Shown: one piece after another, positions 4,291-30,654 of the stretch
How the letters are laid out: every line of letters starts with the position of its first letter
Numbering within the stretch: the stretch's first letter is position 1
DNA from: Nitrospirae bacterium CG2_30_53_67
Lineage (GTDB): Bacteria; CG2-30-53-67
NCBI GenBank assembly: GCA_001873285.1
Contig: MNYV01000075.1
Location: 1-34,572, forward strand
Direction: 5' to 3'
Length of the DNA: 34,572 nucleotides
Made by a program: the position numbers and the translations under genes
Notes under the pieces: generated by a model
The model's database searches: none
Told to the model about the DNA's origin: nothing
The model's input: only the letters and a program-made list of their open reading frames with translations

Positions 4291-6599
<2,309 letters not shown>

Positions 6600-6663
6600 A
6601 GGCCTCCCCTCTTCAATGTCCGATCAGAGTAAAACAACCGAACAGAACCAAACAGGGTTTTCC

Positions 6664-6891
6664 TTATTTTCGAAAGAAAAAATAGAATAACAAAAATAAG
6701 ATAATACTTAGAATGATGCTGGTCGTCAAAGGAAAATAAAAGGTAAAATTCTTTTTCCGGATAAAGATGTCTCCGGGAAGCCTGCCCAGCCACGGGATCT
6801 TCCCGGCAAGGAGGAGCATCCCGCCGATCAGGACCAGGAGAAAACCCGTAAAAATCAGGAATTTACCAATGGTTGTCCAGGGACTCATCAT
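6664..6891 (-). CDS. DUF2905 small membrane protein
   Basis: LGRLPGDIFIRKKNFTFYFPLTTSIILS signature between two hydrophobic segments; usual position between ruvB and queA. Start uncertain (6903/6891/6888). Confidence 0.88.
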   Translation of the reverse strand: MMSPWTTIGKFLIFTGFLLVLIGGMLLLAGKIPWLGRLPGDIFIRKKNFTFYFPLTTSIILSIILFLLFYFFFRK

Positions 6892-6914
6892 CTCTTCTTT
6901 CAAAGGCCTTTTCA

Positions 6915-7151
6915 GGGTAAAAAGGATTCAAGGGTTTCAGGGTTCAAGGGTTCAAGTGAAATACCGAAACGCAAGAAAAATCTTCAGAGAAAAGCACTGG
7001 AACCCTGGACCCCTGATGTTTTTGGCACTTCACTTGACCCCTGGAATCCTGGACCCCTTGACCCCTCGGTCCCTTATGTTTTCAGCACTTCACTTGACCC
7101 CTGGAATCCTTGACCCCTTGGACCCTTATGTTTCACCCGCTCTTTTGGAGA
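6915..7151. mobile_element. Hairpin MITE-like repeat family A, copy 2 (internal ~60-bp tandem duplication)
   Basis: Same core and right end as the other copies. GCACTTCACTTGACCCCTGGAATCCT occurs twice, 60 bp apart, within 7011-7130. Confidence 0.8.
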
Positions 7152-7703
7152 TGAACCTTTTTTTGCCTCCGGCTTCTTTTTCATGTAGCGTTCCATCTCG
7201 CTGTAGATACACCCGCAATAGGCCTGGCGGTAGATCCCAAGTTCCCTGGACCGGTCCGCCCCGGCCTTCCATCCTGTGCGGAAATCCTCATAGTAAAAGG
7301 GAATGCCCCTCTCCTTGGCCACGTCCTCGCCGACACGTTTCACCAGATCATGCTTCTGATAAATACTGTAAAGGAGGGTTGTGGAAAAAGCGCCGGCCCC
7401 CTGCTCCACCGCCTCTTGGGCGGCGGCGGTCAAACGCATACGGTAACAGTGAAAGCAGCGATTCTCTTCATGGAACACCACCTCTCGAAGAAACTCCTTC
7501 AACAGGTATTGGTCCCTGACGATCAAAGGGAGATCCATGGACGAGGCATAACCCGTCAGGGCCGAAAGACGCTTTCTGTATTCTGTCAAGGGATGGATGT
7601 TCGGGTTGAAAAAGAACCCCGTGGTTTCGACCTTCCGGTCTCTCAGAACCGTCAAGGGATATATGGAGCAGGGCGCACAGCAGATATGGAGCAACAGCTT
7701 CAA
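7074..7703 (-). CDS. queH: Epoxyqueuosine reductase QueH (DUF208)
   Basis: [51 protein letters not shown]; clustered with queA and tgt; TTGA overlap with the ruvB stop. Confidence 0.92.
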
Positions 7704-11925: not shown

Positions 11926-14313
11926 CTATTCCCCGGAAGCCGTGCGTTTCAGACCCTTGATCCCATACGCCGTCAGTTTTTTATGAACCCCGTAGGATAG
12001 GACGAGACGAAGACTGTTTACCCGGCCGCCGATCAAATTTTCGGTCTCTTCGTCCACCAGAATCTGGCCGGGAGAACCGGCCTGCATCAGGGTCAAAGCC
12101 CTTTCCCACGTATGGCCGAAAACGGCATAGGGGATGCCCCCCGTCCTCTCCCGAATCAGGAGATCTCCTGTAGCCACGCCCACTGAAACGCCATACCCGT
12201 TCATGTCTTCCTGGGGCAGCCCTTCACCAAAACGTGAAAAAATCTTGAGAAGGTCAACGGATGCAAGAACCGCCCGCCAGGGGTCTCCATGATCAGGAAA
12301 GGGAAGCCCAAAAATCCCCATGACGCCTACGCCGGCATCCCCTGCCGCATCTCCGCTGTGCCGGGCAATGACTTCCCGAACTTTCCGGAGATGCTGTTCG
12401 ATCCTCCGGATCCTTTTGGAAGCCTCCGGGTCTTTCTGCATGGCCTCATTCTCATGGAGATGGACCGAGAGCACGGTCACCTTGTATTCTCCTTCCATCT
12501 TATCGAGAACCGGGGAGTTGTGGAAAACCTTTTCGGAAAGCCTCTGGGAGAGCCCCCCTTCATAACATTCACGGATCCAGCGGCCGTTCTCGAACTCCTC
12601 ATAAAGACGGTGATTCACAATGGCAATGGCCGCCTGTCTCGAAAGGACCTGCAGGATCTCAAGATCTTTATCTGTAAACGGACCTTCGCGCATCGGGTCG
12701 GAGAGATTGATGACGCCGAGGACTTTCCCCTCATGAAGCACCGGCGCCGAAAGCAGGGTCCCGGATCGATACCGGTCCCGCTTGAAGGGAACAAAACGGG
12801 GATCCTTTTCTATGTCCTCGATCAGAAGCGGCTCACCCTTCTGAGCCACGTAACCGGCTATGGCCTCACCGACCAACAGCCGTGTTTTTTGTGCGATCTC
12901 ATCCTGGAGCCCCCGGTAGGCCTTGACCACAAGGTCCCCTTTGTCCTCCCGGAGGAGCATAATCGATACGCTTTTCACAGAGATCTTCTCACAGATCATC
13001 TCCACAATCAAATCAAGCACCACATCCAGATCAAAGAGCATGGAGACGGCCTGGCTCAGGTCCACCGATGCCAGCATCTCAAAAACCTTCTGTTCCTTCT
13101 CCGATTCCCTGGCCATGAGAGAAAGGACCTCTTTATTCAGCTTCAGGGTGGCTGACCGCACCTGCTCATCGAGCGCCTCTTTGAGCCGGCGATTTTCCTC
13201 CTCAAGGGCCTGCAGGCGCTCCGCCGTGACCTCGGTTCCTCCGTTTTTTTCCGCTCCGGCCTCCCTGACCGGGACCGTCTTTTCCCCGGGATCCTTTTCA
13301 GGTCTTGGATCCTTATCCTCCTGCTTTTCAAAAGCAAGGGACTGCTGCATCCAGCCGGTCATCATCTCTTCATACGAGGAGAGGACCTCCCGTTCAGCAG
13401 GGGAAAAGGCATCCCTTCCTTTTCTGCCGAAAACAACCATCCCTTCCATCTCCCCCACACGGATACGGATCGAGAGCAGGCTGACAAGCCTTCGAGCTTC
13501 AAAAAAGTCCTTTTCATCCTTCTCCTTCCTGAGGTCAGGGTAATAGGCCTCCTCTCTCTTGATGGATCTCAATAACCAAGGAATCCGCTGCTGGCCCAAA
13601 AGAACCTCACCGATCTTTCCTCCCTGGTCCCGTTCCAGACCCCGCAGATTCCCATCCGGATCCAGGAGGAGAACCGAGCAGAAATCAACCTCGATGGGCG
13701 GGTCGTTTTCCAGAATTTTCTGAATGCAGTCTTTAAGACCCGGAGGGGGGCTGAAAGCAGGGATGCCGCGCACCAGCTTTCGCTGTCCGTGATATAGCGA
13801 TAGAATCCGATCCGCTCTTAAGACCACCGAATAAACAATCCCGGCGAACACAAAGTAGAGAAAAACGATCCCGCCGAGTTCCAGGTTCCATCCCTCGGAT
13901 ACCACCGAGGTGTAAAACGCATGATACAGGGTCATCACCGAAGGGATCAGGGCAATGGGAAACCAGGCCCACCTCCGATTGTAGCAGAGACCGATCCCCA
14001 GCATCAGGACAGGAATCGTCAAATACCACTGGACAGAAAGCCCCTTCATCTGGATCAGGGAAGAAACCGCGAAGACATCCAGAAAATAGATGCCGATCGC
14101 TACCCCCTGTTGAATCCGTCTGGTGTAGCGGACCAGGAGCATAATTTCCGATACGGCAAAATACCCCAAAGCCGGCCAGAGAGGGAAGAATCTGCCGGAT
14201 TCGATCAAGACGTAAACCGTCCATGCGATCAGAAGGAATACGGCAAACCTCAGGATAATGAAAGTCCATGACCGATGAATGGAGTCGTCTATTCTGTTGT
14301 TCCAAAACCTCAT
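11926..14313 (-). CDS. Membrane protein with GAF domains, coiled coil and degenerate class III nucleotide cyclase-like domain
   Basis: Hydrophobic N-terminal ~160 aa; GAF motifs GEAIAGYVAQKGEPLLIEDIEKDPRF, LLSAPV..GKVLGVINLSD, FTDKDLEILQVLSRQAAIAI; C-terminus VTVL..MGIFGLP..VGVATGD..YAVFG..GQILVDEET. ATGA overlap with the uvrC stop. Confidence 0.8.
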   Translation of the reverse strand: MRFWNNRIDDSIHRSWTFIILRFAVFLLIAWTVYVLIESGRFFPLWPALGYFAVSEIMLLVRYTRRIQQGVAIGIYFLDVFAVSSLIQMKGLSVQWYLTIPVLMLGIGLCYNRRWAWFPIALIPSVMTLYHAFYTSVVSEGWNLELGGIVFLYFVFAGIVYSVVLRADRILSLYHGQRKLVRGIPAFSPPPGLKDCIQKILENDPPIEVDFCSVLLLDPDGNLRGLERDQGGKIGEVLLGQQRIPWLLRSIKREEAYYPDLRKEKDEKDFFEARRLVSLLSIRIRVGEMEGMVVFGRKGRDAFSPAEREVLSSYEEMMTGWMQQSLAFEKQEDKDPRPEKDPGEKTVPVREAGAEKNGGTEVTAERLQALEEENRRLKEALDEQVRSATLKLNKEVLSLMARESEKEQKVFEMLASVDLSQAVSMLFDLDVVLDLIVEMICEKISVKSVSIMLLREDKGDLVVKAYRGLQDEIAQKTRLLVGEAIAGYVAQKGEPLLIEDIEKDPRFVPFKRDRYRSGTLLSAPVLHEGKVLGVINLSDPMREGPFTDKDLEILQVLSRQAAIAIVNHRLYEEFENGRWIRECYEGGLSQRLSEKVFHNSPVLDKMEGEYKVTVLSVHLHENEAMQKDPEASKRIRRIEQHLRKVREVIARHSGDAAGDAGVGVMGIFGLPFPDHGDPWRAVLASVDLLKIFSRFGEGLPQEDMNGYGVSVGVATGDLLIRERTGGIPYAVFGHTWERALTLMQAGSPGQILVDEETENLIGGRVNSLRLVLSYGVHKKLTAYGIKGLKRTASGE

Positions 14314-18774: not shown

Positions 18775-21045
18775 TCACTTCTTAACCAAAACTTCCTGTT
18801 CAAGGATTTTATACATGGTCAGGAGGGAGATCAGCCATGAAAGGGTGGACTCTGCGCCCTGATTCGCATTCACTCCGGTAGGCTGAATGCCGTCGCAGCA
18901 GCCCCCTGTTTCAAAATCATAGATCTGTACATTGAGGTCGTTTCGTCCCAGAAACCAGCTGAGACAGCGGTACCCCTCTTCAATCCACTTCCTCTCGCCA
19001 GTGGCACGAAAGGCCTCGGCACAGGCTTCGATCAGGCACATGGCTTCAATCGGTTGTTGATCAAAGGTAGATGAATCGCCTTCCCTGTTGTGCCAATCCG
19101 TATTCCCGATGATGGAGAGGTGACCTTCAGGCGCCTTCTGTCTGGCAAGCAGCCAGTTCAGGCTGTTGATCCCCATCTCGAACATTTCCGTGTGCGGTAT
19201 CCATTGGCCGGCCAGGATCAGTGCATGGGACAACTTGGCATTGGCATAGGTCACCTGATCTTCACACCACGGCCAGTCGTGAGAGGCCCTTTGCTTAAAG
19301 AGGTCAAACAGTTTTTCCCCAAGGACTGCGCGCAACCGACGGGCCGTCGTGTCCCCGCCGAATGCTTCCATATAGGCCTGCAGGCCGACAATGGCAAAGG
19401 CCCATGCCCTGGGTGACGTAAAGTTTTCCAGCGCAGGAAGACCCTCTGAAAAGAGACCCGCAGCCATTTTCCGGATCGAGTCACTCGGCGCGCATTTCAC
19501 GGCAGTGCCCAGCCCCCAGAGGGACCGGCCGTGGGAATCTTCACTTCCCATCTCTTCAAGCCAGCGTCTGTCATAGGACATGAAGTTTCTGAAGCGAGCG
19601 TTTCCCGGATTGAAAGAGTCGTTCATAAAGGAAAGATAGGTCTGAATCAACGGGACCACACCTTTATCCTTGAGCAGGGAGTAGTGCATGCAGGCAACAA
19701 TGAGCGCCCTGGCGTTATCATCGGCGCAGTAGCCATGGCTTCGGTCGGGGATGGAGTATTTCGCGTGCTGAAGCATCCCGGTGTCATCGGTCATGATTCT
19801 CATATGTTTCAAGTTGATGTCAGGAAGTTCACTGACGATCCTGGCATCCGGTCTTTCCGAAAATTGTGGTATGGCCTGGTCTTTTGTGTGCGTGAGCACT
19901 TTACCGATTAGCTTGAAGTAGCTTCGTCCCACTTCCTTCCAGATCATGGACCGGCCGAACCGGTAACACTTCTCGCGGATCTCCATGCGTTCTTCTTCAT
20001 GATCCAGCAAGTGGTTGACGGCTTCGGCCATGGCGTGATCGTCGTTGAAAGGGACGAGGCGCCCTCTCCCATCAGCCAGCATCTCCTTGGCATACCAGTA
20101 AGGCGTGGAAACAGCGGGGGTCCCCATGCCCGTACTATAGGCCAGGGTGCCGGATACGATCTGTTGTTCGTTAATGTATGGCGTGATATAGATGTCGGCC
20201 GCCGTGATATATTGAATCAGTGTGTCCATCCTGACAAAACGGTTCCGAAACAGGACATGATCGTTCATACCGAGCCGGTTGACCAGCTGATAAAGGCCTT
20301 GTTGGTAGGAATCTCCGGATTCCTTCACAACGTATGGATGGATTTGCCCGAGAATAATATAAACCGCATCGGGGTGGCGCTCAATAATCCCGGGCATGGC
20401 CTTGATCATCATGTCAAGCCCCTTTGCCGGGCTCAACAGGCCAAAGGTTAAAAGAATCTTATTCTCGCTCAAGCCAAGGTGATTTCGAAAGGTATCGGAC
20501 CTTTTAAAGGGAGTGTCAGGAATCCCGTGAGGGATGAATTCTATTTTTGAGTCGTCGATGCCGTACACTTCCTTCAACATCGAACGGGCCTTGTGGGCCA
20601 TGACCACCAATGATTCGGAATATCTTGCCAGTTCCTGAATGATGACACGCTGTTTGCCGAAAGGGTCCTGGAGGATTGTATGCAAGGTGGTAATGACCGG
20701 CATTCTCAGATTCTTGATCAGACGGATGATGTAGGCGCCGTCACTTCCCCCAAAAATGCCGAATTCGTGCTGGAGGATGGCGACATCGAATTTGTGCACA
20801 TTCAGAAAATCAGCGGCACGGATATAATCAGGCTGGACATTTGCTCTAATCTGGAACTTGACCCGGTCCGGGTAGTGATACCCTTCATCCATATCATCCA
20901 TGGCCACGGCGATGAGATTTTCATCGCTCTTTTCCATCTGACCTGCAAGGGCATCACACAGATCGCCAGTAAAGGTTGCAATACCGCACTGCCTGGGGAG
21001 GTAATTTCCTATGACTGCTATTTTTTTCAATGATTCTGTCCCCAA
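18775..21045 (-). CDS. GT4 glycosyltransferase fused to a C-terminal six-hairpin glycosidase-like domain
   Basis: N-terminal PRQCGIATFT, QHEFGIFGG, TLHT, IPHG, TFGLLSPAKG, SGTLAY, VSTPYWYA; C-terminal DDTGMLQHA, YCADDNARAL, EDSHGR, FDQQPIEA, WFLGRN, NQGAESTLSWL. Start is TTG 21045 or TTG 21030. Confidence 0.85.
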   Translation of the reverse strand: MGTESLKKIAVIGNYLPRQCGIATFTGDLCDALAGQMEKSDENLIAVAMDDMDEGYHYPDRVKFQIRANVQPDYIRAADFLNVHKFDVAILQHEFGIFGGSDGAYIIRLIKNLRMPVITTLHTILQDPFGKQRVIIQELARYSESLVVMAHKARSMLKEVYGIDDSKIEFIPHGIPDTPFKRSDTFRNHLGLSENKILLTFGLLSPAKGLDMMIKAMPGIIERHPDAVYIILGQIHPYVVKESGDSYQQGLYQLVNRLGMNDHVLFRNRFVRMDTLIQYITAADIYITPYINEQQIVSGTLAYSTGMGTPAVSTPYWYAKEMLADGRGRLVPFNDDHAMAEAVNHLLDHEEERMEIREKCYRFGRSMIWKEVGRSYFKLIGKVLTHTKDQAIPQFSERPDARIVSELPDINLKHMRIMTDDTGMLQHAKYSIPDRSHGYCADDNARALIVACMHYSLLKDKGVVPLIQTYLSFMNDSFNPGNARFRNFMSYDRRWLEEMGSEDSHGRSLWGLGTAVKCAPSDSIRKMAAGLFSEGLPALENFTSPRAWAFAIVGLQAYMEAFGGDTTARRLRAVLGEKLFDLFKQRASHDWPWCEDQVTYANAKLSHALILAGQWIPHTEMFEMGINSLNWLLARQKAPEGHLSIIGNTDWHNREGDSSTFDQQPIEAMCLIEACAEAFRATGERKWIEEGYRCLSWFLGRNDLNVQIYDFETGGCCDGIQPTGVNANQGAESTLSWLISLLTMYKILEQEVLVKK
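20994..21030. repeat. 37-bp degenerate direct repeat, copy A (coding start of the GT4 fusion gene)
   Basis: tggggaggtaatttcctatgactgctatttttttcaa matches 24932-24968 at 32/37. Confidence 0.85.
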
Positions 21046-21079
21046 AATATAGGGTTTGAGTGTTAAAGAGCTTTAGGGG

Positions 21080-21856
21080 TCAAGGGTCCAAGTGGAATTG
21101 GGAATATTGTTTGCAGAAATTATTTGGCAAAAGCTTCGCTGCTTTTAAATCCAAAAACATATAAACTTTAGATTTTTTTTGCAAGACAGACGCAGGACAT
21201 TTTGGAGTTACTTCTCCCAACAGGCTTTCTGCCAAAATTCTTGACTTTGATTCTCCGCTAACTAAACAAAAAATTTCTTTGGATTTCATAATTTGTTTTA
21301 TTGACATCGTAATAGCTTTTTGAGGCACATTATCAACGGAAGGGAAATATCCTTTTTTAAATTGATTTTTTTTATTAAGATCATCCAATTCAACGACAAT
21401 ATATGGATCTTTTGTTAAAAGATCAGCCGGCGGATCATTAAAAGCAATGTGGCCATTTACCCCAATCCCTATAAATGTCAGGTCAACAACATATTGAGAA
21501 ATTAATTTATTTAATCGGTGACATTCTGTTTCAGCATTTACCGAATCGCCATTAATAAAATGAATTTCTCCGGGATGAACAATATCCACCAACCGTTCTT
21601 TTAAATATTTGCGAAAACTGGCAGGATGTTCTTTGCCAAGACCGATATATTCATCCAAATGAAAAATTGTAATTTTCCTCCAATCAATTCCCGGAAATGC
21701 GGTCAGTTCTTTTAAAAAGGCAATTTGAGTTCTTCCCGCTGCCGCCACCAGGCAAGCCCTGTTTTTTTTATCAATACATTGCTGAATTCTCTCCGTTGCC
21801 AACTTGGCGGCGGCGATAGCTAACTGATTCTCTGTCTCAAATAAATAAACGTTCAT
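21080..21856 (-). CDS. Glucosamine-6-phosphate deaminase/isomerase (NagB-like)
   Basis: FHLDEYIGL..HPASFRKYL, GIGVNGHIAFNDPPA, VPQKAITMSI, CPASVLQ; AT-rich. Confidence 0.85.
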   Translation of the reverse strand: MNVYLFETENQLAIAAAKLATERIQQCIDKKNRACLVAAAGRTQIAFLKELTAFPGIDWRKITIFHLDEYIGLGKEHPASFRKYLKERLVDIVHPGEIHFINGDSVNAETECHRLNKLISQYVVDLTFIGIGVNGHIAFNDPPADLLTKDPYIVVELDDLNKKNQFKKGYFPSVDNVPQKAITMSIKQIMKSKEIFCLVSGESKSRILAESLLGEVTPKCPASVLQKKSKVYMFLDLKAAKLLPNNFCKQYSQFHLDP

Positions 21857-21875
21857 AATTATCAGGGGAATAATT

Positions 21876-23096
21876 TTATTTGTGTAGATTGTTGTGATTG
21901 TTGTTGTGCCGTCTCAGGTCATCAAAATACAGGGTGCTCTTTTTTTCCACACAAGCGGCTGCGTATAAATACATTGCTGCTGACCAGGTCTGCCAATCTT
22001 GCCCACGGGGTTCCCCTGTTTGGGCCTTAATCCATTCGTTAAAACCAAACGAAACATCATGGTCACGGGTTAATTTTACCAATGCGGTTAAACTAAGTAA
22101 CTTTTCTTCAGCTAAACGATATTTTTGCACTGCCACTATAGAAGCCACGTAAAAAGCAGATATAAAGGGCCAGACGCCTCCGTTATGATATTCGCCCGGA
22201 AGGTTAAATTGTTCATATCTTTTGTGCCAGTCAGGGTTAGTCGGCTGTATATATGGAATCAAGCAAGGCGGCAGTTTTATAGCCAACTCTTCTCTTTTAA
22301 TCAACGCCTCACTTTCAGCTTCAACCCAAAGCACCATCTCGAGCGCCCGGCTATGAGAAGCCACACCGGATAATATAGCCAAACTATTGCCCAATAAATC
22401 AAAACGGTCATCACTATGGATTTTATATGAAGACATCGCGTAATATGGTTTGTGTTTGACTACTAAACCTTCATGCACGTGCCGGTTTCTGCGCCCCCCT
22501 CGAACATTCAGCCTGTTCATCATTTTTTTTAACATATCAGCCCGGTCATTGAAGCCATAAAGCTTGAGATAGGTGTAAGTTAATGTATTAACATAAAGGC
22601 CAAATCCCATAACCCAGTGTTCATCTCGCCAGTCACTGGTCGGTAACTGAGCAACCATCTCTGAACAATCCGGACTTTGATATTCCATCCAAGTAAGTGC
22701 TTTTTGCGCCGCTTTTTCTAAAAACAATTTTTCTCCAGTCACTTTCCGATAAAGCGCTAATCCAATTAAAAATAACGGCGTGGTATCACTTGCGCCTAAA
22801 TCATGGGGATCATGGGCTAAGGAAGGTATATGTCCTAAGTTGGTTTGATTTTTAGCTAAAGCTTCCAATGTCCGACGCAATGAATCAATTAATTCTTCGT
22901 TTCCTGAAGCAAGCATTCCAAAGGCCGCAATCATTAAATCTCTGGTATAGGGCTCTGGATATCCCCAGCCAGCAGTTCTGGGCAGTTCTTGATAGGGTCC
23001 GTCAACGTTATGCAACAGTATCTCTATAGCAGCTTCCTTAGCTTCCTGAATTTCAGCTTTGTTTTTTTCATTAAGAACTGAATTTTTTTTGAACAT
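21876..23096 (-). CDS. (alpha/alpha)6 glycoside hydrolase, GH100 (neutral invertase)/amylo-alpha-1,6-glucosidase-like
   Basis: YTRD, SDWRDE, YHNGGVWPF, FNEW and QTWSAAMYL resemble neutral invertase motifs (YHNGGSWP, QTWS). Confidence 0.75.
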   Translation of the reverse strand: MFKKNSVLNEKNKAEIQEAKEAAIEILLHNVDGPYQELPRTAGWGYPEPYTRDLMIAAFGMLASGNEELIDSLRRTLEALAKNQTNLGHIPSLAHDPHDLGASDTTPLFLIGLALYRKVTGEKLFLEKAAQKALTWMEYQSPDCSEMVAQLPTSDWRDEHWVMGFGLYVNTLTYTYLKLYGFNDRADMLKKMMNRLNVRGGRRNRHVHEGLVVKHKPYYAMSSYKIHSDDRFDLLGNSLAILSGVASHSRALEMVLWVEAESEALIKREELAIKLPPCLIPYIQPTNPDWHKRYEQFNLPGEYHNGGVWPFISAFYVASIVAVQKYRLAEEKLLSLTALVKLTRDHDVSFGFNEWIKAQTGEPRGQDWQTWSAAMYLYAAACVEKKSTLYFDDLRRHNNNHNNLHK

Positions 23097-24244
23097 TATG
23101 ATATCCCTAAACGATTGGAAACAATTTCTACAAATTTTTTGGCTACTATTTTATAGTCGAAAAGCTTTGCTGCTCTTTTGCGTCCAGCTTCACCCATTTT
23201 TTTGCGTAAATCGGCGTCTTCCATCAACTTTAAAAGATAATCTGCTATATCATGAATACTGGCCCGAAAGTCTACAGTGCGGGGAGGGTTAAAAAGAACT
23301 CGGTGTCCCTTTTCATAACCGGATTCTTCACCAATGATGGCTTCGTTAACTACAATTTGGGTGGCAACATTCGCTAAAAATGCAGTTTCCCCATGTTTCA
23401 TGGTATCTAAAAAACCCATGGCATTGATTGCCAATACTGGTTTCCCGCAAGAATTTGCCTCTACAGCCGGCATACCAAATCCTTCCAATCTAGAGGGAGA
23501 CGCATAAATATCACAAGCTGCAAATAAATACGGCATAAAGTATCTTGACAGGACACCTTCAGAATAAAGCACATTTTTTTCTATACCCAAATGAGTGGCC
23601 AATTGCAGGTCAATAAGGTTTTGGGCTTTTGTACGAGCCTGTGGCCAAACCTTACATATATATCTCCAATCCGGCGCTTTTTGGTCAATTAGCGCTAATG
23701 CCTGCATGACTTCCTGAGCTCCTTTGGAAGCGGCATCTCCTCCTACAGTTAAAAGCATTAACTGGTCTTTAGGTATCCCGAATGTATTACGAACAGCTTG
23801 TACTTTTGAATCATCCTGATCCATCGGGGTAAAAACATTTGTATCACAACCAATGGGCAATACCTCTATATTGTCTCCTTTTACTCCGTCTCTAATATAT
23901 GTTTCTTTAACCCAATTTGAAGTAACTAAAATCAACGGCAACGAATTCAATATCTCATGATAATTCGCCACATAGCCGTCCGCTATTAACCAAGGAACAG
24001 GTTGAACACCATAACGTTTTGGATGAAGCACGATATGAGGGGTGTGCCCCCAATAGCCTATCCCCACAACGATATTCGGTTTAAACCATCTGTAATACCA
24101 CTCCTTTTCAGTTGGTGATTGAAAATGAACACCACATACGTCAACTCCTATCTCCTTAAGGCCTCGGTATAAAAGTGCTCCCTGGGTAGCAATCCCTCCG
24201 GGAGAAGTCGGATCAAACAACACCAAGACTTTCATTTTAACCAC
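23096..24244 (-). CDS. GT4 (GT-B) glycosyltransferase
   Basis: GGIATQ near the N-terminus, SKG, DIYASPSRLEGFGMPAVEANSCGKPV (E-x7-E), KMGEAGRKRA..FDY. Confidence 0.88.
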   Translation of the reverse strand: MVKMKVLVLFDPTSPGGIATQGALLYRGLKEIGVDVCGVHFQSPTEKEWYYRWFKPNIVVGIGYWGHTPHIVLHPKRYGVQPVPWLIADGYVANYHEILNSLPLILVTSNWVKETYIRDGVKGDNIEVLPIGCDTNVFTPMDQDDSKVQAVRNTFGIPKDQLMLLTVGGDAASKGAQEVMQALALIDQKAPDWRYICKVWPQARTKAQNLIDLQLATHLGIEKNVLYSEGVLSRYFMPYLFAACDIYASPSRLEGFGMPAVEANSCGKPVLAINAMGFLDTMKHGETAFLANVATQIVVNEAIIGEESGYEKGHRVLFNPPRTVDFRASIHDIADYLLKLMEDADLRKKMGEAGRKRAAKLFDYKIVAKKFVEIVSNRLGIS

Positions 24245-24264
24245 CTCTCTTAATTGCGAATACT

Positions 24265-24876
24265 TTAAAGTTTTCTGGTAGAATTAGCCTGCCAGAAAGC
24301 CTCAGTCTTTTGTGCGCATTTAGCTTCAAAACTATCATTAGCAAAACCATATATTTGTGTAATTATTTTATGTTTTTGATACCATATGCTTTGCGCCAAA
24401 TTTGACACTAAATCAGCTTTCTCGACAGGCTTCGGCAGATATTTTCCTTGTCCGTCTTCATAAGCAAACAACCACAATTTATCAGAAACAATATCGGCAC
24501 TTTCCCAAAGCTTGATTACGGCCTTACCGATTTGTTCATGTCGTAAATGAGAAGTGTATTCACCTTTCGGGTGGTGAGTTATTATAAGATCGTATTTTAT
24601 TAAAGGAAGTAAGGAAAGGATGTTTTGTTGGATCTCGTGAGTGCGTATTGGCTTGAGCTGAGGACTGTCGTCTAGATCACCCATTTTTCCGGCGGCGCCT
24701 AAAGCCCCGAGTGCTTTGTAGAACTTAGGAGCCCGATCTTTATCACTTGCACGGCATAATGACAGTATAAACCAATCCCAGCTTGGATTGCTCATGATCA
24801 AGCCCCCTGCCCATATAGTTTCGTCATCCGGATGGGCTACAATGACAGCCGCTTTCATTTGTCTATTAGCTTTCAC
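24265..24876 (-). CDS. PIG-L/LmbE family N-deacetylase
   Basis: VIVAHPDDETIWAGG Zn motif; ITHHPKGEYTSHLRH second motif; C-terminal EAF. GTG start. Confidence 0.82.
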   Translation of the reverse strand: MKANRQMKAAVIVAHPDDETIWAGGLIMSNPSWDWFILSLCRASDKDRAPKFYKALGALGAAGKMGDLDDSPQLKPIRTHEIQQNILSLLPLIKYDLIITHHPKGEYTSHLRHEQIGKAVIKLWESADIVSDKLWLFAYEDGQGKYLPKPVEKADLVSNLAQSIWYQKHKIITQIYGFANDSFEAKCAQKTEAFWQANSTRKL

Positions 24877-24931
24877 CTACATTAAGTTATTTTACTTAAT
24901 TTTGTGTCCACTTTTTTAGCTTGCCTCACTT

Positions 24932-24968
24932 TGGGGACGTAGTTTTCCATGACTGCTGTTTTTTTCAA
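24932..24968. repeat. 37-bp degenerate direct repeat, copy B (relict GT4 start overlapping the GH130 stop)
   Basis: Minus strand TTG AAA AAA ACA GCA GTC ATG GAA AAC TAC GTC CCC = LKKTAVMENYVP, versus LKKIAVIGNYLP in the real gene. Confidence 0.85.
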
Positions 24969-26461
24969 TTCCCCTCCAAAACACTGGTGGTTCGGCTATT
25001 CAACATCCTGGACAGTAAATCCTTTACCGGAACAACCGCAATGCCTGACGAGGTATCCGACATGGAGTAAGGGATAATCAAGTCCTCGTTGTGGATCATG
25101 GCTCCGCAGGTATACAACACGTTCGGCACATACCCTTCACGCTCTTCTTCTGTGGGAGAAAGAAGCGGTTCAGACAGGCGGCCGATCACCTTTGTCGGAT
25201 CTTCCAGATCCAGCAGGCAGGCTCCAATGCAATATTTCCTCATGGGACCGACGCCGTGAGTTAACAGGATCCACCCTTCCTCGGTCTCAATGGGAGAGCC
25301 GCAATTGCCGATCTGTATGAACTCCCACGGATACCGTGGCTTCTGCAGAAGTTGGGCTTCTTGCCAGAAGTGAATATTGTCTGAAGACATGATAAACATG
25401 TTTTCACCATCCTGACGGGAGATCATCATATATTTCCCATTAATTTTTCTGGGGAAAAGGGCCATCCCTTTGTTCTGCACGGCATCCCCGTTGAGCGTTC
25501 GAATCTTGAAGTTGTTAAAGTCCCTGGTTTCCAGTAGCATGGGGAGGATATTAAAACCGTTGTAGGCGGTGTAGGTCGCATAGTAGATGGGTTCGTCGTC
25601 GCCATTGAAAAAATGTACGAATCGGGCATCCTCAATCCCCCGGCTTTCGTTTTCAGAGACCGGGAAGATGACTTTCTCTGATATCCTTTTCTCTTTTCTG
25701 AATCTTAATTCGTAATTGGATCTGGCGAGCCAGAGGATCTTCTCAACCGTGTCATGAAGCAAAGGCAGCCGCGCTCCTCTATGCGCGTCGAACTCCCGCT
25801 GAATAGCCGTCTCAAGCTCATAGAAAGAAAACCTGTCGGACAAGTCCTTCAAGATTTCATCGGAGACCTCGTTCTTTGACTCCATATCTTCCAGTTTCAA
25901 CTGGAACACGTATTTGTCGTAGGTCGGGTTCTTTATCACTTCAGGGGTCTCCACAAAGCGGCCCACTTCGTCGAAGTGGAGTTTATTCTTATCATCAAGA
26001 ATGCCGCTTCTGAACTCAATCGAGGAGATATGACCTTCGCCGGTGGAGCGAAAACTCAGAATAAATCGGACGCTCCCTTTGTTGAGATTGCTCTGATCCG
26101 TATGCTTCACGATGGAGGGGTTAAAAAAGGCCGCAGCTTGTACAGAGTATTCATGCGTAAAACAAGCCCCGATCAGGCACCGCCTGTCCCCGGACATCTT
26201 CGTTCCATTCGGGATATAATGTTTGATGACCTTGAAGTTCTTGTCAATTATCCGCCAGATGTCCTTGTGGCGGGTTGAAAAGTCAGTGATGATCTGGTTC
26301 AGGTTCTCCTTGACGTCATCCTCTGAAAGACCAAGAACACGTTGGATGATATGGTTGATCTGCTCAACACTGCTCGGCACGTAGAATTTGGCGATGACTC
26401 TGGAGGGCTCTGAAAAAAACCTTTTTTTTCTTCTTCGTATCTTTAAAGAATTATTATTCAT
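24965..26461 (-). CDS. GH130 glycoside phosphorylase/hydrolase, long form
   Basis: AAFFNPSIV, STGEGHISSIEFR, GIEDARFV, YTAYNG, NKGMALFPRKI, WEFIQIGNCGSP, LTHGVG, EREGYVPNVLYTCG. Start placed at ATG 26461. Confidence 0.88.
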   Translation of the reverse strand: MNNNSLKIRRRKKRFFSEPSRVIAKFYVPSSVEQINHIIQRVLGLSEDDVKENLNQIITDFSTRHKDIWRIIDKNFKVIKHYIPNGTKMSGDRRCLIGACFTHEYSVQAAAFFNPSIVKHTDQSNLNKGSVRFILSFRSTGEGHISSIEFRSGILDDKNKLHFDEVGRFVETPEVIKNPTYDKYVFQLKLEDMESKNEVSDEILKDLSDRFSFYELETAIQREFDAHRGARLPLLHDTVEKILWLARSNYELRFRKEKRISEKVIFPVSENESRGIEDARFVHFFNGDDEPIYYATYTAYNGFNILPMLLETRDFNNFKIRTLNGDAVQNKGMALFPRKINGKYMMISRQDGENMFIMSSDNIHFWQEAQLLQKPRYPWEFIQIGNCGSPIETEEGWILLTHGVGPMRKYCIGACLLDLEDPTKVIGRLSEPLLSPTEEEREGYVPNVLYTCGAMIHNEDLIIPYSMSDTSSGIAVVPVKDLLSRMLNSRTTSVLEGN

Positions 26462-26506
26462 ACTCAAGTTCTTCTCCAATTTAGTGTGCAAGAAGAAATT
26501 TGGTGA

Positions 26507-26546
26507 CACCCCTCATCCTAACCTTCTCCCCATGGGGGAGAAGGGA
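26507..26546. repeat. REP-like element CACCCCTCATCCTAACCTTCTCCCC-ATG-GGGGAGAAGGGA
   Basis: 10-bp perfect stem 26522-26531/26535-26544 between the two GH130 genes. Confidence 0.65.
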
Positions 26547-26583: not shown

Positions 26584-27525
26584 CTAATAAGCTGCCCTTG
26601 AATGCTTCAGGCACATCTCCACAAGATCCGAGATGGTAGCGGACCCAACACACATGACGGTATCCGCGCCGCCCCAATAAAGCTTTACAGTGCCGTCCTC
26701 TTCCGGAACGGCGCCGCAGGTGAAGACAACATTGGGAACATAGCCGGTCGTCTCCCAGGGATCTTCGGGCTGAAGAATCCAGTCATCAGAGATACCGATC
26801 ACTTTGGACGGATCGTCCAAGTCGTGTAAGGCCACGCCTAACCTGTAAACCGCACCTGCCATAGTCCGGTAGACCCCGTGGTAGATATGGAGCCATCCTT
26901 GATCGGTCCTGAACGGGGTGGCTCCAGGACCGATCTTCAGCTCATCCCAGTGATAGGTCACCGGTTTCATCACGACCCTCGACTCTCCCCAATGGATCAG
27001 GTCGGGAGAATAGGATATGTGTATGGACCAAGGTGATATCTCCGAATGAGGGCGGTCAAGACGAGCATATCGCCCGTCAAACTTCTGGGGGAAGATGACC
27101 ACATTTCGCATGTCCGGTTGGGAAATAAGAGCCATACGCTCGACACTCTTAAAATCCGTGGTTCGTGCCAGGGCAATCCTCACTCCATGTCTGGAGTAAG
27201 CGCTGTAGGTAAGCAGATACTCGTCATCTATGGCACAGATACGCAGATCCTCGACCCCATACTCTTCGTATTCGGCGAAGACGCCTTGTTTTGCAGGAAC
27301 AAGGAAAGGCTCCGGACGCACGGTAAAGGAGTAACCCTCTTCGCTTTCCGCCAGACCGATGACACACCGGCCGTTTAAAAGATGGGAACGGAAGAGCATC
27401 ACGTACCTCCCGTCATGTTTGACCATCCCGGCATTATGAACGGTAGAGACGGGGTAGGGTACGTCATCACAGGTCAGAATGGGGTTCTTTTCATACCTTC
27501 GAACCACAGGATTTTTCAAGACCAT
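26584..27525 (-). CDS. GH130 beta-mannoside phosphorylase family protein
   Basis: RYEKNPIL, VHNAG, GVEDLRI, RNVVIFP, RLDRP, KIGPG, IYHGV, YRLG, GYVPNVVFTCG, YWGGADT. Confidence 0.9.
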   Translation of the reverse strand: MVLKNPVVRRYEKNPILTCDDVPYPVSTVHNAGMVKHDGRYVMLFRSHLLNGRCVIGLAESEEGYSFTVRPEPFLVPAKQGVFAEYEEYGVEDLRICAIDDEYLLTYSAYSRHGVRIALARTTDFKSVERMALISQPDMRNVVIFPQKFDGRYARLDRPHSEISPWSIHISYSPDLIHWGESRVVMKPVTYHWDELKIGPGATPFRTDQGWLHIYHGVYRTMAGAVYRLGVALHDLDDPSKVIGISDDWILQPEDPWETTGYVPNVVFTCGAVPEEDGTVKLYWGGADTVMCVGSATISDLVEMCLKHSRAAY

Positions 27526-27530
27526 CTCCT

Positions 27531-28883
27531 CTACTTCCGACCGAAGTCATCCTCGATCCTTACAATATCATCCTCACCGAAATAGTCTCCCATTTGTACC
27601 TCAATAAAGGCCATGTTCTCCTTTGTCGGATTTTCGATACGATGGACACCCCCCCTCGGGATGTCTATGGAATCGCCTTTATTGAGCCGGATCTGTTTCC
27701 CATCCAATGTGACCAGGCCCTCACCATATACCGCAGTCCAATGCTCGGCACGACGCTGGTGCTTCTGGAGGCTCAGCCGCTTTCCGGGATAGACCACGAT
27801 ACGTTTGACTTTGTGGTCCGGTTTGTCGGAAAGGATCGTGTAGTATCCCCACGGACGATGGTCCTCACGTTTTGTCAATTCAAGGATCTGCTCGTAAACT
27901 TGAATGTAATCATTCACCATACGCTCAGCAGAAAAGTTCTTCTCCACAAACCCGCGGCAGGCCGAGCGGTCTATTGCAGACAACTCTTTCACGGCGTCAA
28001 CCGCCTCCTCAACATTGGAGACCAGGAAACCATTCACACCATGCCGAATCAGCTCCGGCATACTGCCCCGGTTAAAAGCAATCACCGGCGTCCCACAGCA
28101 CATGGCCTCAATAATGGAAAGACCGAAGGGCTCCTCAAAACTGATAGGGTGTAACAAAGCGCATGCCTTGCCGAGGAGTTTATCCCTCTGCTCCGGACCC
28201 ACGCTTCCCACATAGGTGACATGATCACCATCGATATGAGGCTTCACCTCTAATTCAAAATAAGCCTCGTCCTGAATCACACCGGCCATGATGAGTTTCT
28301 TGCCTGCGGCCCTGGCAATTTCGATTGCCTCTTTGGCTCCTTTTTCCGGGTGGATCCGGCCGAAGAAGAGAAGCGTGTCCTCAGGTTCAGGTACGAAAGT
28401 AAAGCCATCGAGGTCAATACCGTGGTGGATCGTAGCAATGTAGTTCAGATTCGGTGAACGGTCGGCCTCGCTAATGGCAACATAGAAGGTCTTTTCGTTA
28501 TATTTTTCATAAACAGGCAGGATGCGGGGGGATGAAAAGCCGTGAATCGTTGTGAGAACAGGCGTCGTCACCAGCTTGCTGTATGTCAAAGGGAGAAAAT
28601 CAAAATGGTTGTGAATCAGGTCAAATTCATCGGCCCGGTCAAAGAGTTCGGAAATGTGGAGGCACTCCCAGACCTTGGGTTCGATCTGCCTGTTCTCTTC
28701 GTAGCCTCCTTTGCAGACGGCATGGAGTTGCCCCTTTGTGATGGAGTCCGCCGTGGCAAAAAGGGTCACGTCGACCCCTTTGGCGATCAGCCCCTCCGTC
28801 AACAGAGACACGACACTTTCCCATGGTCCGTAATGTCGTGGAGGCGTTCTCCAAGCAATCGGTGAAAGCATCGCTATGCGCAT
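27531..28883 (-). CDS. GT4 glycosyltransferase fused to a type II phosphomannose isomerase cupin domain
   Basis: MRIAMLSP..PPRHYGPWE, GRIHPEKG, EEPFGLSIIEAMCCGTPV; C-terminal RPWGYY..VKRIVVYPGKRLSLQKHQRRAEHW..HRIENP..IEVQMGDYFGEDDIVRIEDDFGR. Confidence 0.9.
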   Translation of the reverse strand: MRIAMLSPIAWRTPPRHYGPWESVVSLLTEGLIAKGVDVTLFATADSITKGQLHAVCKGGYEENRQIEPKVWECLHISELFDRADEFDLIHNHFDFLPLTYSKLVTTPVLTTIHGFSSPRILPVYEKYNEKTFYVAISEADRSPNLNYIATIHHGIDLDGFTFVPEPEDTLLFFGRIHPEKGAKEAIEIARAAGKKLIMAGVIQDEAYFELEVKPHIDGDHVTYVGSVGPEQRDKLLGKACALLHPISFEEPFGLSIIEAMCCGTPVIAFNRGSMPELIRHGVNGFLVSNVEEAVDAVKELSAIDRSACRGFVEKNFSAERMVNDYIQVYEQILELTKREDHRPWGYYTILSDKPDHKVKRIVVYPGKRLSLQKHQRRAEHWTAVYGEGLVTLDGKQIRLNKGDSIDIPRGGVHRIENPTKENMAFIEVQMGDYFGEDDIVRIEDDFGRK

Positions 28884-29007
28884 AAGGTATATGTAACCTA
28901 TATTCCGATTGACAGCAAGGTTTTTCCCCTCATAGGGGAAGAAGAACCGCCACAGCCCATCCAAAACCGACGAGAAAATTGATCCTTCGATAGTATGAAT
29001 ACCGGGA

Positions 29008-29036
29008 AATCTAACACTCGCTCAGAAATATGTCAA
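29008..29036 (-). promoter_or_regulatory. sigma70-type promoter for the carbohydrate operon
   Basis: Minus strand TTGACA-N17-TAGATT with a TGn extended -10. Confidence 0.6.
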
Positions 29037-29120: not shown

Positions 29121-29597
29121 TCAAAGAGGTCGTGGTCGGTCCGGATCGGAGTTCTTCAGGGATTCCAATGCTTCCACATCGGCCAAATCCTTGGTTCTTC
29201 CTGACGTCCTCTTGTTTCGAATGAGGTCGTCAATCGAAAGAATATGCACTTCGATTCCCTCAATGTTCAGAGACAGTGACCTTCGATACGTCTCCTCAAA
29301 CTGAAGTCCGGATGCCGCGGTGATGATGTCGATTCGCCTCGGGGCAACTCCGATCTGGAAAATGGTCCCATCCTTCTGAAGGTCTTCTTTGGTCAGATTG
29401 TGCAGCGGGGCGCCGAAGCGGCGCAATGCCCGTAATACGGCATCAGCGTTCTGAGGTGACGGCATGACCCAAATGTCTATGTCCATGGTGGCCCGGGGAT
29501 AACCGTGGGCTGCCATGGCATAGGCGCCGACGAGGAGGAACCTAACCTTCTCGTCGGACAAGACTTGTAATATGTCTTTGTAGTCTTCGTTCAGCAT
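29121..29597 (-). CDS. Nucleotidyltransferase-fold protein (DUF6036-like)
   Basis: LLVGAYAMAAHGYPRATMDIDIW (G..A..RxTxDxD), RIDIIT, K..SGRTKDLADVEAL. Confidence 0.82.
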   Translation of the reverse strand: MLNEDYKDILQVLSDEKVRFLLVGAYAMAAHGYPRATMDIDIWVMPSPQNADAVLRALRRFGAPLHNLTKEDLQKDGTIFQIGVAPRRIDIITAASGLQFEETYRRSLSLNIEGIEVHILSIDDLIRNKRTSGRTKDLADVEALESLKNSDPDRPRPL

Positions 29598-29802: not shown

Positions 29803-29934
29803 GAATAATCCTGGAAGGACGCCTGGTGTTCGCTTCGTGGTCCTGTTCGTAAATAGGGTGACGTGCCGAGAGGGTCTCCAATGGAAGGATGAAGCAAGTG
29901 CCACGGAAGCGGTTTAGTTCAACAGGGTTTTCTA

Positions 29935-30654
29935 TTGTCGAAATCCTTTTTTAATGATATAAATGCAATCCTGATGACAAAAATTTCCCTGTTGGTTATC
30001 GTTTCCGTCATGATTCAGTTGGCCGCGGCATTCCTGGCCTTCCGCATGATCAAGGTCTCGAGGCACGTCCCAGGCTGGATCCTGATCTCTCTCGCCCTTT
30101 TTCTCATGGGAGTCCGGCGGATCGCCTCCCTCATGGGTTATCATCTGCCGGGAGCTGAACACTTCAGGGGGGGAACCCCGGAGACCATCGCCTTGGTCAT
30201 TTCCATCCTGATGCTCTGCGGCGTCGTCCTGATACGGCGCTATTTCATCCATCAAAACCGGCAGGAAGAACGCCTTCTCGAATCGGAAAAGCGCTACAAA
30301 ACCCTGTCGGATCAGCTCGAACAACGGGTAGAAGAGAGAACCCGGGAACTCCAGAATACCATTCAGACCCTTCAGGAGTGCCGGCGGATCAAAAGCGATT
30401 TTCTGGGCAGGATGTCCCACGAGCTCCGGACGCCGCTCAACTCCGTCATCGGTTTTTCAGACGTTCTTTTGAACGGCATGGATGGAGAACTCACCAGTGA
30501 ACAGAAAAAAGACGTCGAGATGATCTTCCACAGCGCTCAGCATCTTCTTCAACTAATCGATGATATCCTTGACCAATACAGACATGAATCAGGGAAGGAG
30601 ACACCGGACGCAGGCAAGGCGGGAAGTCCGGAAATCCCGGACGACGTTCATTGA
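29935..30654 (+). CDS. Membrane protein with HisKA domain but no HATPase domain
   Basis: About three TM segments, coiled coil LEQRVEERTREL, H-box KSDFLGRMSHELRTPLNSVIGFSD, LLQLIDDILD, then stop. Start uncertain. Confidence 0.82.
   Translation: MSKSFFNDINAILMTKISLLVIVSVMIQLAAAFLAFRMIKVSRHVPGWILISLALFLMGVRRIASLMGYHLPGAEHFRGGTPETIALVISILMLCGVVLIRRYFIHQNRQEERLLESEKRYKTLSDQLEQRVEERTRELQNTIQTLQECRRIKSDFLGRMSHELRTPLNSVIGFSDVLLNGMDGELTSEQKKDVEMIFHSAQHLLQLIDDILDQYRHESGKETPDAGKAGSPEIPDDVH

Follow-up and report, generated by a model that had tools for sequence, protein, structure and literature searches.

A horizontally acquired deacetylase–glycosyltransferase–hydrolase triad in the mannoside operon of a Nitrospirae bacterium: a possible make-and-trim add-on for glucosamine

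What is made by four adjacent, co-oriented genes encoding a deacetylase, a glycosyltransferase, a hydrolase and a deaminase in the genome of Nitrospirae bacterium CG2_30_53_67? The genes are located on contig MNYV01000075.1 (assembly GCA_001873285.1), of which the whole stretch of 34,572 nucleotides was analysed (hereafter the window). In the direction of transcription, on the minus strand, they code for a PIG-L/LmbE-family metal-dependent de-N-acetylase (24265..24876, 203 amino acids (aa)), a retaining glycosyltransferase of family GT4 with GT-B fold (23096..24244, 382 aa), an (alpha/alpha)6 hydrolase that is distantly GH100-like (GH100/GDE_C/MGH1; 21876..23096, 406 aa) and a NagB-type deaminase (21080..21856, 258 aa). 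A sequence-only reading had proposed that the four genes synthesise and recycle a glucosamine-containing small molecule that is not a thiol. Its description of the four co-oriented open reading frames (ORFs) proved accurate: the domain calls held, with all Pfam matches above the cut-offs, and the GT4 and hydrolase genes do share base 23096, where the stop codon TAA and the start codon ATG overlap as TAATG.

Which of the four genes form a unit? A pattern scan with one genome per species gave at least 599 confirmed hydrolase loci, and neighbours of the hydrolase gene were detected by tblastn in the best 80 of these loci, to which all synteny counts given here refer. The GT4 gene was found in 75 loci (62–71% identity) and the PIG-L gene in 70. 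In the five loci without GT4 the contig ends within ~400 bases of the hydrolase gene; of the remaining five loci that lack PIG-L, four are cut likewise and only one, L056, has room for the gene. In all 63 loci in which the three ORFs were called, the genes are arranged PIG-L > GT4 > hydrolase in the same order and on the same strand, with gaps of typically −4 to +3 bases. Besides these, a GH130 gene was detected in 24 loci (in 8 of the type named GH130b below), a large GT4 (GT4big, see below) in 21, a GT4–cupin fusion in 3 and a NagB-like gene in 2, and no other family among 1,074 clustered neighbouring ORFs was present in more than 8 of the 80 loci. The proteins of the triad are ~60–70% identical across phyla, including Planctomycetota, Bacteroidota and Acidobacteriota. 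Since a quick tree of GT4 and hydrolase (53 rows, supported by SH-aLRT, an approximate likelihood-ratio test, only) sorts the rows mostly by phylum, this high identity is ascribed to constraint and not to recent spread. The conserved core is the triad of PIG-L, GT4 and hydrolase, whose co-occurrence is far beyond chance, and NagB is an accessory. Conservation of the four-gene neighbourhood, as expected by the sequence-only reading, was therefore seen for the triad (75 and 70 of the 80 loci) but not for NagB (2 of 80). A full-text literature search, bioRxiv supplements not covered, found no description of the triad.

Only one fused form of the GT4 of at least 670 aa was found, P0125, a GT4–hydrolase fusion on one contig, which may be due to a one-base error at the overlapping stop and start codons. 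The length band of this search leaves out PIG-L–GT4 fusions of ~600 aa. In L050 (7121-8971, Brocadiia), PIG-L and GT4 are called as one 617-aa frame, which could be a natural deacetylase–transferase fusion or a sequencing slip.

How did the genes get to their place in this genome? They lie within a run of eight sugar genes of one orientation (28964-18775, minus strand), hereafter referred to as the mannoside operon. Its first gene codes for a GT4 fused to a type-II phosphomannose isomerase cupin (GT4-cupin, 27531..28964; PF00534 and, with 118.9 bits, PF01050), followed by two GH130 genes, GH130a (26584..27525, PF04041 186 bits) and GH130b (24965..26509, PF04041 118 bits, with an N-terminal extension of 270 aa). 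After the four cassette genes the run ends with GT4big, a GT4 of 756 aa with a C-terminal (alpha/alpha)6 domain (18775..21045; GT4 Pfam match over residues 65-362). The same-family relatives G002 and G005 contain GT4-cupin, GH130a, GH130b and GT4big with 77–92% protein identity and lack the four genes; in both, GH130b directly abuts GT4big. GT4-cupin is 91% identical in G002, and GT4big is 83–90% identical in G002, G004 and G005. Comparison by blastn with the locus of G002 (L103) gave two collinear blocks, window 26477-24962 matching 4964-6476 of L103 (88.9%) and window 21037-19861 matching 6523-7699 (88.4%). Between the blocks there are 46 bases in the relative and 3,924 bases in the window (21038..24961), and it is this insertion that holds the four genes. 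The GC content of the insert is 0.403, compared to 0.50–0.52 in the surrounding operon; gene by gene, it amounts to 0.358–0.421 for the four cassette genes and 0.474–0.532 for the four flanking sugar genes, with 0.516 for the window. Further, a search of 13 relatives of the same class, including one of the same genus, detected the hydrolase in none.

The insert is bracketed by two copies of a 38-base direct repeat on the minus strand (repeat family D1), which are identical in 33 of 38 positions and spaced by 3,938 bases. The downstream copy (20994..21031) is the real 5′ end of GT4big, a protein that begins MKKIAVIGNYLP from a probable TTG start at 21030, with the same start context in L102 and L103. 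The upstream copy (24932..24969) overlaps the stop codon of GH130b; in it, the first 12 codons of GT4big are duplicated in a decayed form that now opens a remnant ORF of 28 codons. Genes encoding an integrase, transposase or other recombinase were not found in the insert. Contigs from other runs (X7, 10.9 kb; X10, 8.0 kb) span position 21768 to beyond 25500 with 0 differences and therefore the upstream junction is not an assembly artefact of the bin. A single segment of foreign DNA brought in the four genes, in the same orientation as the mannoside operon. In the quick tree the window is placed on a long branch (0.59) near rows of Phycisphaerae and Acidobacteriota; since no starred clade holds the window, the donor of the cassette cannot be named.

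Does the operon that received the cassette give a hint to its function? Both resident GH130 proteins are above the PF04041 cut-off and their nearest solved enzymes are phosphorylases. The best PDB matches of GH130a are TM1225 (1vkd, 8.2e-61) and UhgbMP (4udg, 1.4e-47), those of GH130b are 9fj8, a 1,2-beta-oligomannan phosphorylase (1.8e-38), and 7fip, and GH130b is predicted to be of the beta-1,2-mannoside phosphorylase type. The C-terminal half of GT4big (residues 385-756; 18778-19893) was modelled as an (alpha/alpha)6 barrel with a predicted local distance difference test score (pLDDT) of 81.6. Its closest folds are an uncharacterised Yersinia protein (7tem, Z 34.9), cellobiose 2-epimerases (Z 28–29) and GH76 mannanases (Z 28.6), and it carries an invariant DDNAR motif. 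The motif is suggestive of a GH76-type Asp-Asp dyad, a putative correspondence, and the domain may be a hydrolase, a transglycosylase or an epimerase. A relationship of this domain to the hydrolase of the triad was considered as well; no sequence similarity was found (BLASTP, E ~1) and the two are not detectably paralogous.

GT4big or GH130 adjoins the triad in three different gene orders (in the 21 and 24 of the 80 loci mentioned above). Because GT4big does not adjoin the triad in 59 of the 80 loci, the coupling rests mostly on co-occurrence at the genome level. In a whole-genome profile search of 50 of these 59 loci (nine with a GH130 hit were left out), the C-domain of GT4big was found elsewhere in the genome in 47, mostly with E <1e-100. 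It was found in 9 of 40 triad-less genomes (13 of the same class and 27 more distant), a control that consists of other lineages with smaller genomes. In an even sample of 120 Planctomycetota, from which the seed genome G057 was left out, the hydrolase was present in 4 genomes and the C-domain in 17, i.e. in 4 of 4 triad genomes and in 13 of 116 others; the one-sided Fisher test gave 2.9e-4, a value that is overstated since kin are not independent. The reverse nesting fails, as many genomes, including relatives of the window genome, contain GT4big without the triad. Taken together, genome-level co-occurrence and the insertion into the operon suggest that the triad is an add-on to a system of GH130 and GT4-(alpha/alpha)6 enzymes. 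The same loci can be looked at differently: the triad could be a pathway of its own in which an alpha-glucosaminyl glycoside of some simple metabolite, serving as osmolyte or protective solute, is formed and recycled, with the mannoside genes not involved. The 59 loci without adjacent GT4big would fit this, as would the neighbours of the triad in Bacteroidales, which include the stress genes YtxH, Usp and DnaJ and an AI-2E transporter, and the small-solute pathways from which the closest GT4s and the closest folds of the hydrolase (invertase, mannosyl- and glucosylglycerate hydrolases) come. Yet the GT4-(alpha/alpha)6 protein is encoded elsewhere in nearly all such genomes and in a minority of the triad-less ones, and the cassette landed inside a mannoside operon in its orientation. 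Therefore, we consider a stand-alone pathway unlikely.

Which reactions can be expected from the enzymes of the triad? The PIG-L protein matches PF02585 with 37.7 bits (cut-off 28.2), and in an alignment of 60 homologues at least 97% retain the AHPDDE motif, H101, G105-E106-Y107, H110, R112 and H113. The residues of AHPDDE and the histidines are presumably the zinc ligands, by analogy with MshB. A PDB sequence match was not obtained at E ≤ 1. The GT4 matches PF00534 with 84.6 bits (cut-off 26.4), and its EX7E pair (E254/E262) and the loop G168-G169-D170...K174-G175 are invariant in 37 sequences. Its best PDB sequence matches are MshA (3c4q, 4.8e-12), sucrose-phosphate synthase (6kih), BshA (2jjm) and GlgM (6tvp). 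These nearest characterised GT4s act on small soluble acceptors, with all scores far below the family cut-offs. A complex of GT4 and hydrolase was predicted with alignments A2 and A3 and scored 0.00 against a mark of 0.32; the prediction was run without controls and nothing is drawn from the score.

The pairing of a GT4 with a PIG-L deacetylase is known from thiol biosynthesis, and the claim of the sequence-only reading that the product is not a thiol is borne out as far as tested. The scores against the equivalog models were 72.3 vs 462.5 bits for MshA (TIGR03449), 45.1 vs 273.7 for BshA (TIGR03999) and 26 vs 195 for BshB2. In the 95%-complete genome neither BshC (PF10079) nor inositol-1-phosphate synthase (PF01658) was found, MshC not having been searched for, and no ligase family recurs in the 80 loci. 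It had also been stated that the window has no cysteine ligase, phosphatase or transporter, and indeed none of these domains, nor a sugar kinase domain, was found among window ORFs of at least 120 aa. A thiol pathway is excluded to this extent. A role in anti-phage defence was rejected, with 0 PADLOC families for 7 of 7 cluster proteins; a match to PF20706 (GT4-conflict) of 28.1 bits is well below the generic GT4 match.

GT4 and PIG-L together also represent the logic of PIG-A/PIG-L, and surface-glycan islands are typically low in GC. Envelope or lipid glycoconjugate synthesis could thus be envisaged, i.e. formation of a glucosaminyl lipid like that of glycosylphosphatidylinositol anchors, an exopolysaccharide or a protein glycan, with the hydrolase trimming the product as in Pel/Psl systems. 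Besides the gene pair and the low GC of the insert, weak NCBIfam matches to the model of GlcNAc-phosphatidylglycerol synthase (37.6 bits vs 480) and to exopolysaccharide GT4 models point in this direction. All of these scores are, however, far below the cut-offs, an inositol-1-phosphate synthase was not found in the genome, and no gene for a flippase, polymerase, export protein or lipid carrier recurs in the 80 loci or is present in the window, which makes an envelope function very unlikely. An obvious signal peptide, judged by eye, is absent from all four cassette proteins.

What does the hydrolase cleave? It matches PF12899 with 46 bits (cut-off 23.6), and only positions 249-432 of the 435 profile positions are covered. 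Of 8,000 scored candidates, at least 6,459 were homologues at E ≤ 0.001; the top 120 of these show 60–71% identity and carry source names from Anaerolineae, Planctomycetota, Bacteroidales and Chloroflexota. The structure was modelled with a pLDDT of 75.7 and a predicted template modelling score (pTM) of 0.84. The best folds are GH100 invertases (Z 27–29, root mean square deviation 3.2–3.6 over 324–337 residues, ~20% identity), followed by an archaeal debranching glucosidase (GDE), GH15 enzymes, MmpH and the GH63 mannosylglycerate hydrolase. The closest folds are those of cytoplasmic enzymes cleaving small alpha-glycosides. For GH100 alkaline/neutral invertases, the pair Asp188/Glu414 (InvA numbering) is given as catalytic (PMC6995568). 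E354 of the hydrolase aligns with Glu415 of InvB and the equivalent catalytic Glu of InvA.

Is the deaminase part of the pathway? The protein matches PF01182 with 83.8 bits (cut-off 27), for which it is the sole match in the 95%-complete genome, and TIGR00502 with 158.2 bits, below the cut-off of 236.9. Its best PDB match is NagB of B. subtilis (2bkv, 1.8e-34); HLDEY and GIGVNGHIAFND are kept, and the NagB motifs LDEY and GxGxNGHIAFN are retained. A function as 6-phosphogluconolactonase was considered and rejected: NagB models score higher, and since zwf was not found, a lactonase role is unlikely. The closest metagenomic relatives (44–53% identity) adjoin nagA in 35 of 79 loci, and therefore this NagB comes from ordinary amino-sugar catabolism. 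None of 80 metagenome loci centred on the closest NagB relatives contains a close triad and one (L146) has a distant triad. A NagB gene directly follows the hydrolase gene also in L036 (Phycisphaerae) and L078 (Bacteroidota); these two proteins reach 303–306 bits with TIGR00502 and are 27–33% identical to NagB of the window. Thus, three NagB lineages stand directly after the hydrolase, and a fourth occurs by the distant triad in L146. A rough Poisson estimate for finding NagB in 2 of 80 loci by chance is 0.005. This repeated, independent recruitment supports a link of the hydrolase product to glucosamine. NagB as a regular member of the pathway, as the sequence-only reading had it, was not upheld, given its presence in 2 of 80 loci, its deletions in the population (see below) and the lack of a glucosamine kinase among the genes found. 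NagB is a repeatedly recruited, dispensable accessory that is decaying in this population.

The occurrence of NagB brings up the degradation of an imported oligosaccharide of GlcNAc and mannose, similar to an N-glycan core or to chitobiose, in which GH130 would phosphorolyse beta-mannosyl-GlcNAc. In the chitin pathway of Thermococcus a deacetylase is followed by a glucosaminidase and glucosamine-6-phosphate deaminase, a logic that could be read into the cassette. A catabolic function is in line with the repeated recruitment of NagB genes after the hydrolase and the nagA-nagB operons in which the closest relatives of the NagB of the window are found, and with the best solved relatives of GH130a, which include the beta-1,4-mannoside types UhgbMP and TM1225. 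It is at odds with the biosynthetic GT4 in 75 of 80 loci and the three GT4s in this operon, with the hydrolase fold, which groups with alpha-glycosidases, and with the lack of signal peptides, as judged by eye. Moreover, among the families recurring near the triad in the 80 loci none is a kinase, phosphatase or sugar transporter, the window has no transporter, and neither nagA nor a sugar kinase was found in this genome. Catabolism of an imported glycan is, therefore, quite unlikely. A BcrAD/BadFG-family ATPase encoded on contig C21 was considered as a possible sugar kinase; the family also holds dehydratase activators.

From these data we propose that the triad is a horizontally acquired, cytoplasmic make-and-trim add-on that places glucosamine on an acceptor of the mannoside system, a model to which we give slightly less than an even chance. 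Donor, acceptor and product, the order of the reactions and the role are all inferred in it. The retaining GT4 would transfer an alpha-linked N-acetylhexosamine, probably GlcNAc from UDP-GlcNAc, to a soluble, unphosphorylated acceptor. This acceptor is probably a mannoside or mannoside precursor on which the GH130 and GT4-fusion enzymes of the resident operon act. The zinc-type PIG-L protein would remove the acetyl group to leave a free amine, and the inverting (alpha/alpha)6 hydrolase would then release the glucosamine, be it in turnover or to trim the compound. Glucosamine-6-phosphate could be channelled to fructose-6-phosphate by the NagB transferred along with the triad, an optional branch that would be decaying in this genome. 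The physiological role may be storage or stress protection. Of the make-and-recycle idea of the sequence-only reading, the core is retained in this model, in agreement with the fixed synteny of the triad, its arrival as one unit, the lack of visible signal peptides and the small substrates of related enzymes; what is given up is the self-contained pathway, as the triad is tied to GH130 and GT4big by adjacency and genome-wide.

Several findings weigh against the make-and-trim model. The enzymes closest to the hydrolase have glucosides or mannosides as substrates and not glucosaminides. The general-acid Asp of the hydrolase was not aligned by HMMER, with D155 and D158 as invariant candidates. 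The downstream junction of the insert is supported by the window contig and the synteny of the relatives only, as the contigs of the other runs leave 20500-21100 uncovered, and the phylum-level control of co-occurrence covers Planctomycetota only. To the 59 loci without GT4big beside the triad come 78 of 80 loci without NagB. A search of the 95%-complete genome gave neither a ROK kinase nor a glucokinase nor nagA, which leaves a gap between glucosamine and NagB. Further, in-frame deletions of nagB were present in other groundwater and aquifer contigs (runs X7 and X10). A 216-base deletion (21552-21767) removes residues 30-101 including LDEY; its depth in X7 was 13.4 compared to 6.6 for the intact form, and it was the sole form recovered at that site in X10. 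A 177-base deletion (21128-21304) removes residues 185-243 and had a depth of 27.5 in X10 compared to 16.9 for the intact form. The other three cassette genes (3.7 kb) showed no differences in the contigs bearing the nagB deletions.

A wider proposal can be put forward, which we regard as possible but rather unlikely: Planctomycetota, Bacteroidota, Acidobacteriota and others would produce a new kind of mannose-based glycoside or oligosaccharide in the cytoplasm that serves as mannogen-like reserve or as stress protectant and is reversibly capped or primed by the triad with a free-amine glucosamine. If this were true, the triad would be a transferable module, and the insertion described here an upgrade of the basic system caught in the act. 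This uncharacterised triad was found in at least 599 species-level genomes, and the phyla across which it is conserved are dominant in sediments, peat, groundwater and digesters. Relatives of the cultivable Paludibacter, Mucilaginibacter and Draconibacterium are represented among its loci. The insertion is a natural experiment that sets the boundaries of the cassette and shows its mobility as one block. Insertion and genome-level co-occurrence both indicate GH130 and the GT4-(alpha/alpha)6 protein as the partner, whose product is the likely acceptor, and thereby the problem of an unknown glycoside is narrowed to a few enzymes and candidate acceptors. What is new here is the boundary-defining insertion, the nesting of the triad in carriers of GT4-(alpha/alpha)6 proteins and a NagB that is recruited repeatedly yet dispensable.

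Some further features of the region were noted. GT4-cupin (27531-28964) recurs in L003, L016 and L019, where it adjoins a GH130 that is 69–70% identical. The extension of GH130b (residues 1-270) has no Pfam match, and the same form is found in 8 of 80 loci and in G002 and G005. Upstream of the eight-gene run there is a weak promoter-like site (29008..29036, minus strand; TTGACA-17-TAGATT with TG, 10/12); the number of such sites in the region is no greater than in shuffled sequence. Just upstream of the operon, a DUF6036/AbiEii-like nucleotidyltransferase gene (29121-29597) and an unannotated ORF of 162 aa (29932-30420) may form a small toxin–antitoxin-like pair. Downstream of the operon lies uvrB, and the remaining genes of the window encode SecDF, Tgt, QueA, RuvABC, YebC, UvrBC, PBP1A and signalling proteins. 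The gene at 11926-14313, which translationally abuts uvrC, encodes a protein of 795 aa that has a GAF domain and matches adenylate/guanylate cyclases weakly.

How does the system compare to those already described? The pair of a GT4 and a PIG-L/LmbE deacetylase is shared with mycothiol (MshA/MshB) and bacillithiol (BshA/BshB) biosynthesis, which are cytoplasmic and have soluble substrates. Unlike there, where the third enzyme is a cysteine ligase, the invariant third gene of the triad encodes a hydrolase. With nagA-nagB catabolism the cassette has in common a NagB-type deaminase with catalytic motifs kept and closest relatives beside nagA, but here nagA, a kinase and a transporter were not found, and nagB is below the TIGR00502 cut-off and polymorphic for inactivating deletions. 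The hydrolase has the (alpha/alpha)6 barrel (Z 24–29) of GH100 invertases such as InvA/InvB of Anabaena and CINV1 of Arabidopsis and of the GH63 mannosyl- and glucosylglycerate hydrolases. It differs from these in that it is ~20% identical, with sequence similarity confined to the C-terminal half, and forms a separate clade that is 60–70% identical internally across phyla and adjoins GT4 and deacetylase genes, not sucrose genes.

For the resident operon, the gene cluster Teth514_1785-1796 of Thermoanaerobacter sp. X-514 is a precedent. It encodes two GH130 phosphorylases of different specificities, a GT4 alpha-mannosyltransferase and GDP-mannose genes (PMC4264767), and also an ABC transporter, a GH5 enzyme and a guanylyltransferase; it was read as a salvage system (PMC4264767). 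The resident operon of the window likewise has two GH130s, GT4s and a phosphomannose isomerase domain. In contrast to the cluster, it has no transporter, combines GT4 with a cupin or an (alpha/alpha)6 domain in one protein and contains the deacetylase triad as an addition. The mycobacterial methylmannose polysaccharide system combines the cytoplasmic GT4 ManT with the (alpha/alpha)6 hydrolase MmpH, and cleavage feeds re-synthesis. Methyltransferases of this kind are not present here, and the deacetylase and the GH130s have no counterpart there; MmpH (7qsj) matches both (alpha/alpha)6 models, that of the hydrolase and that of the C-domain of GT4big, with Z 24–25.

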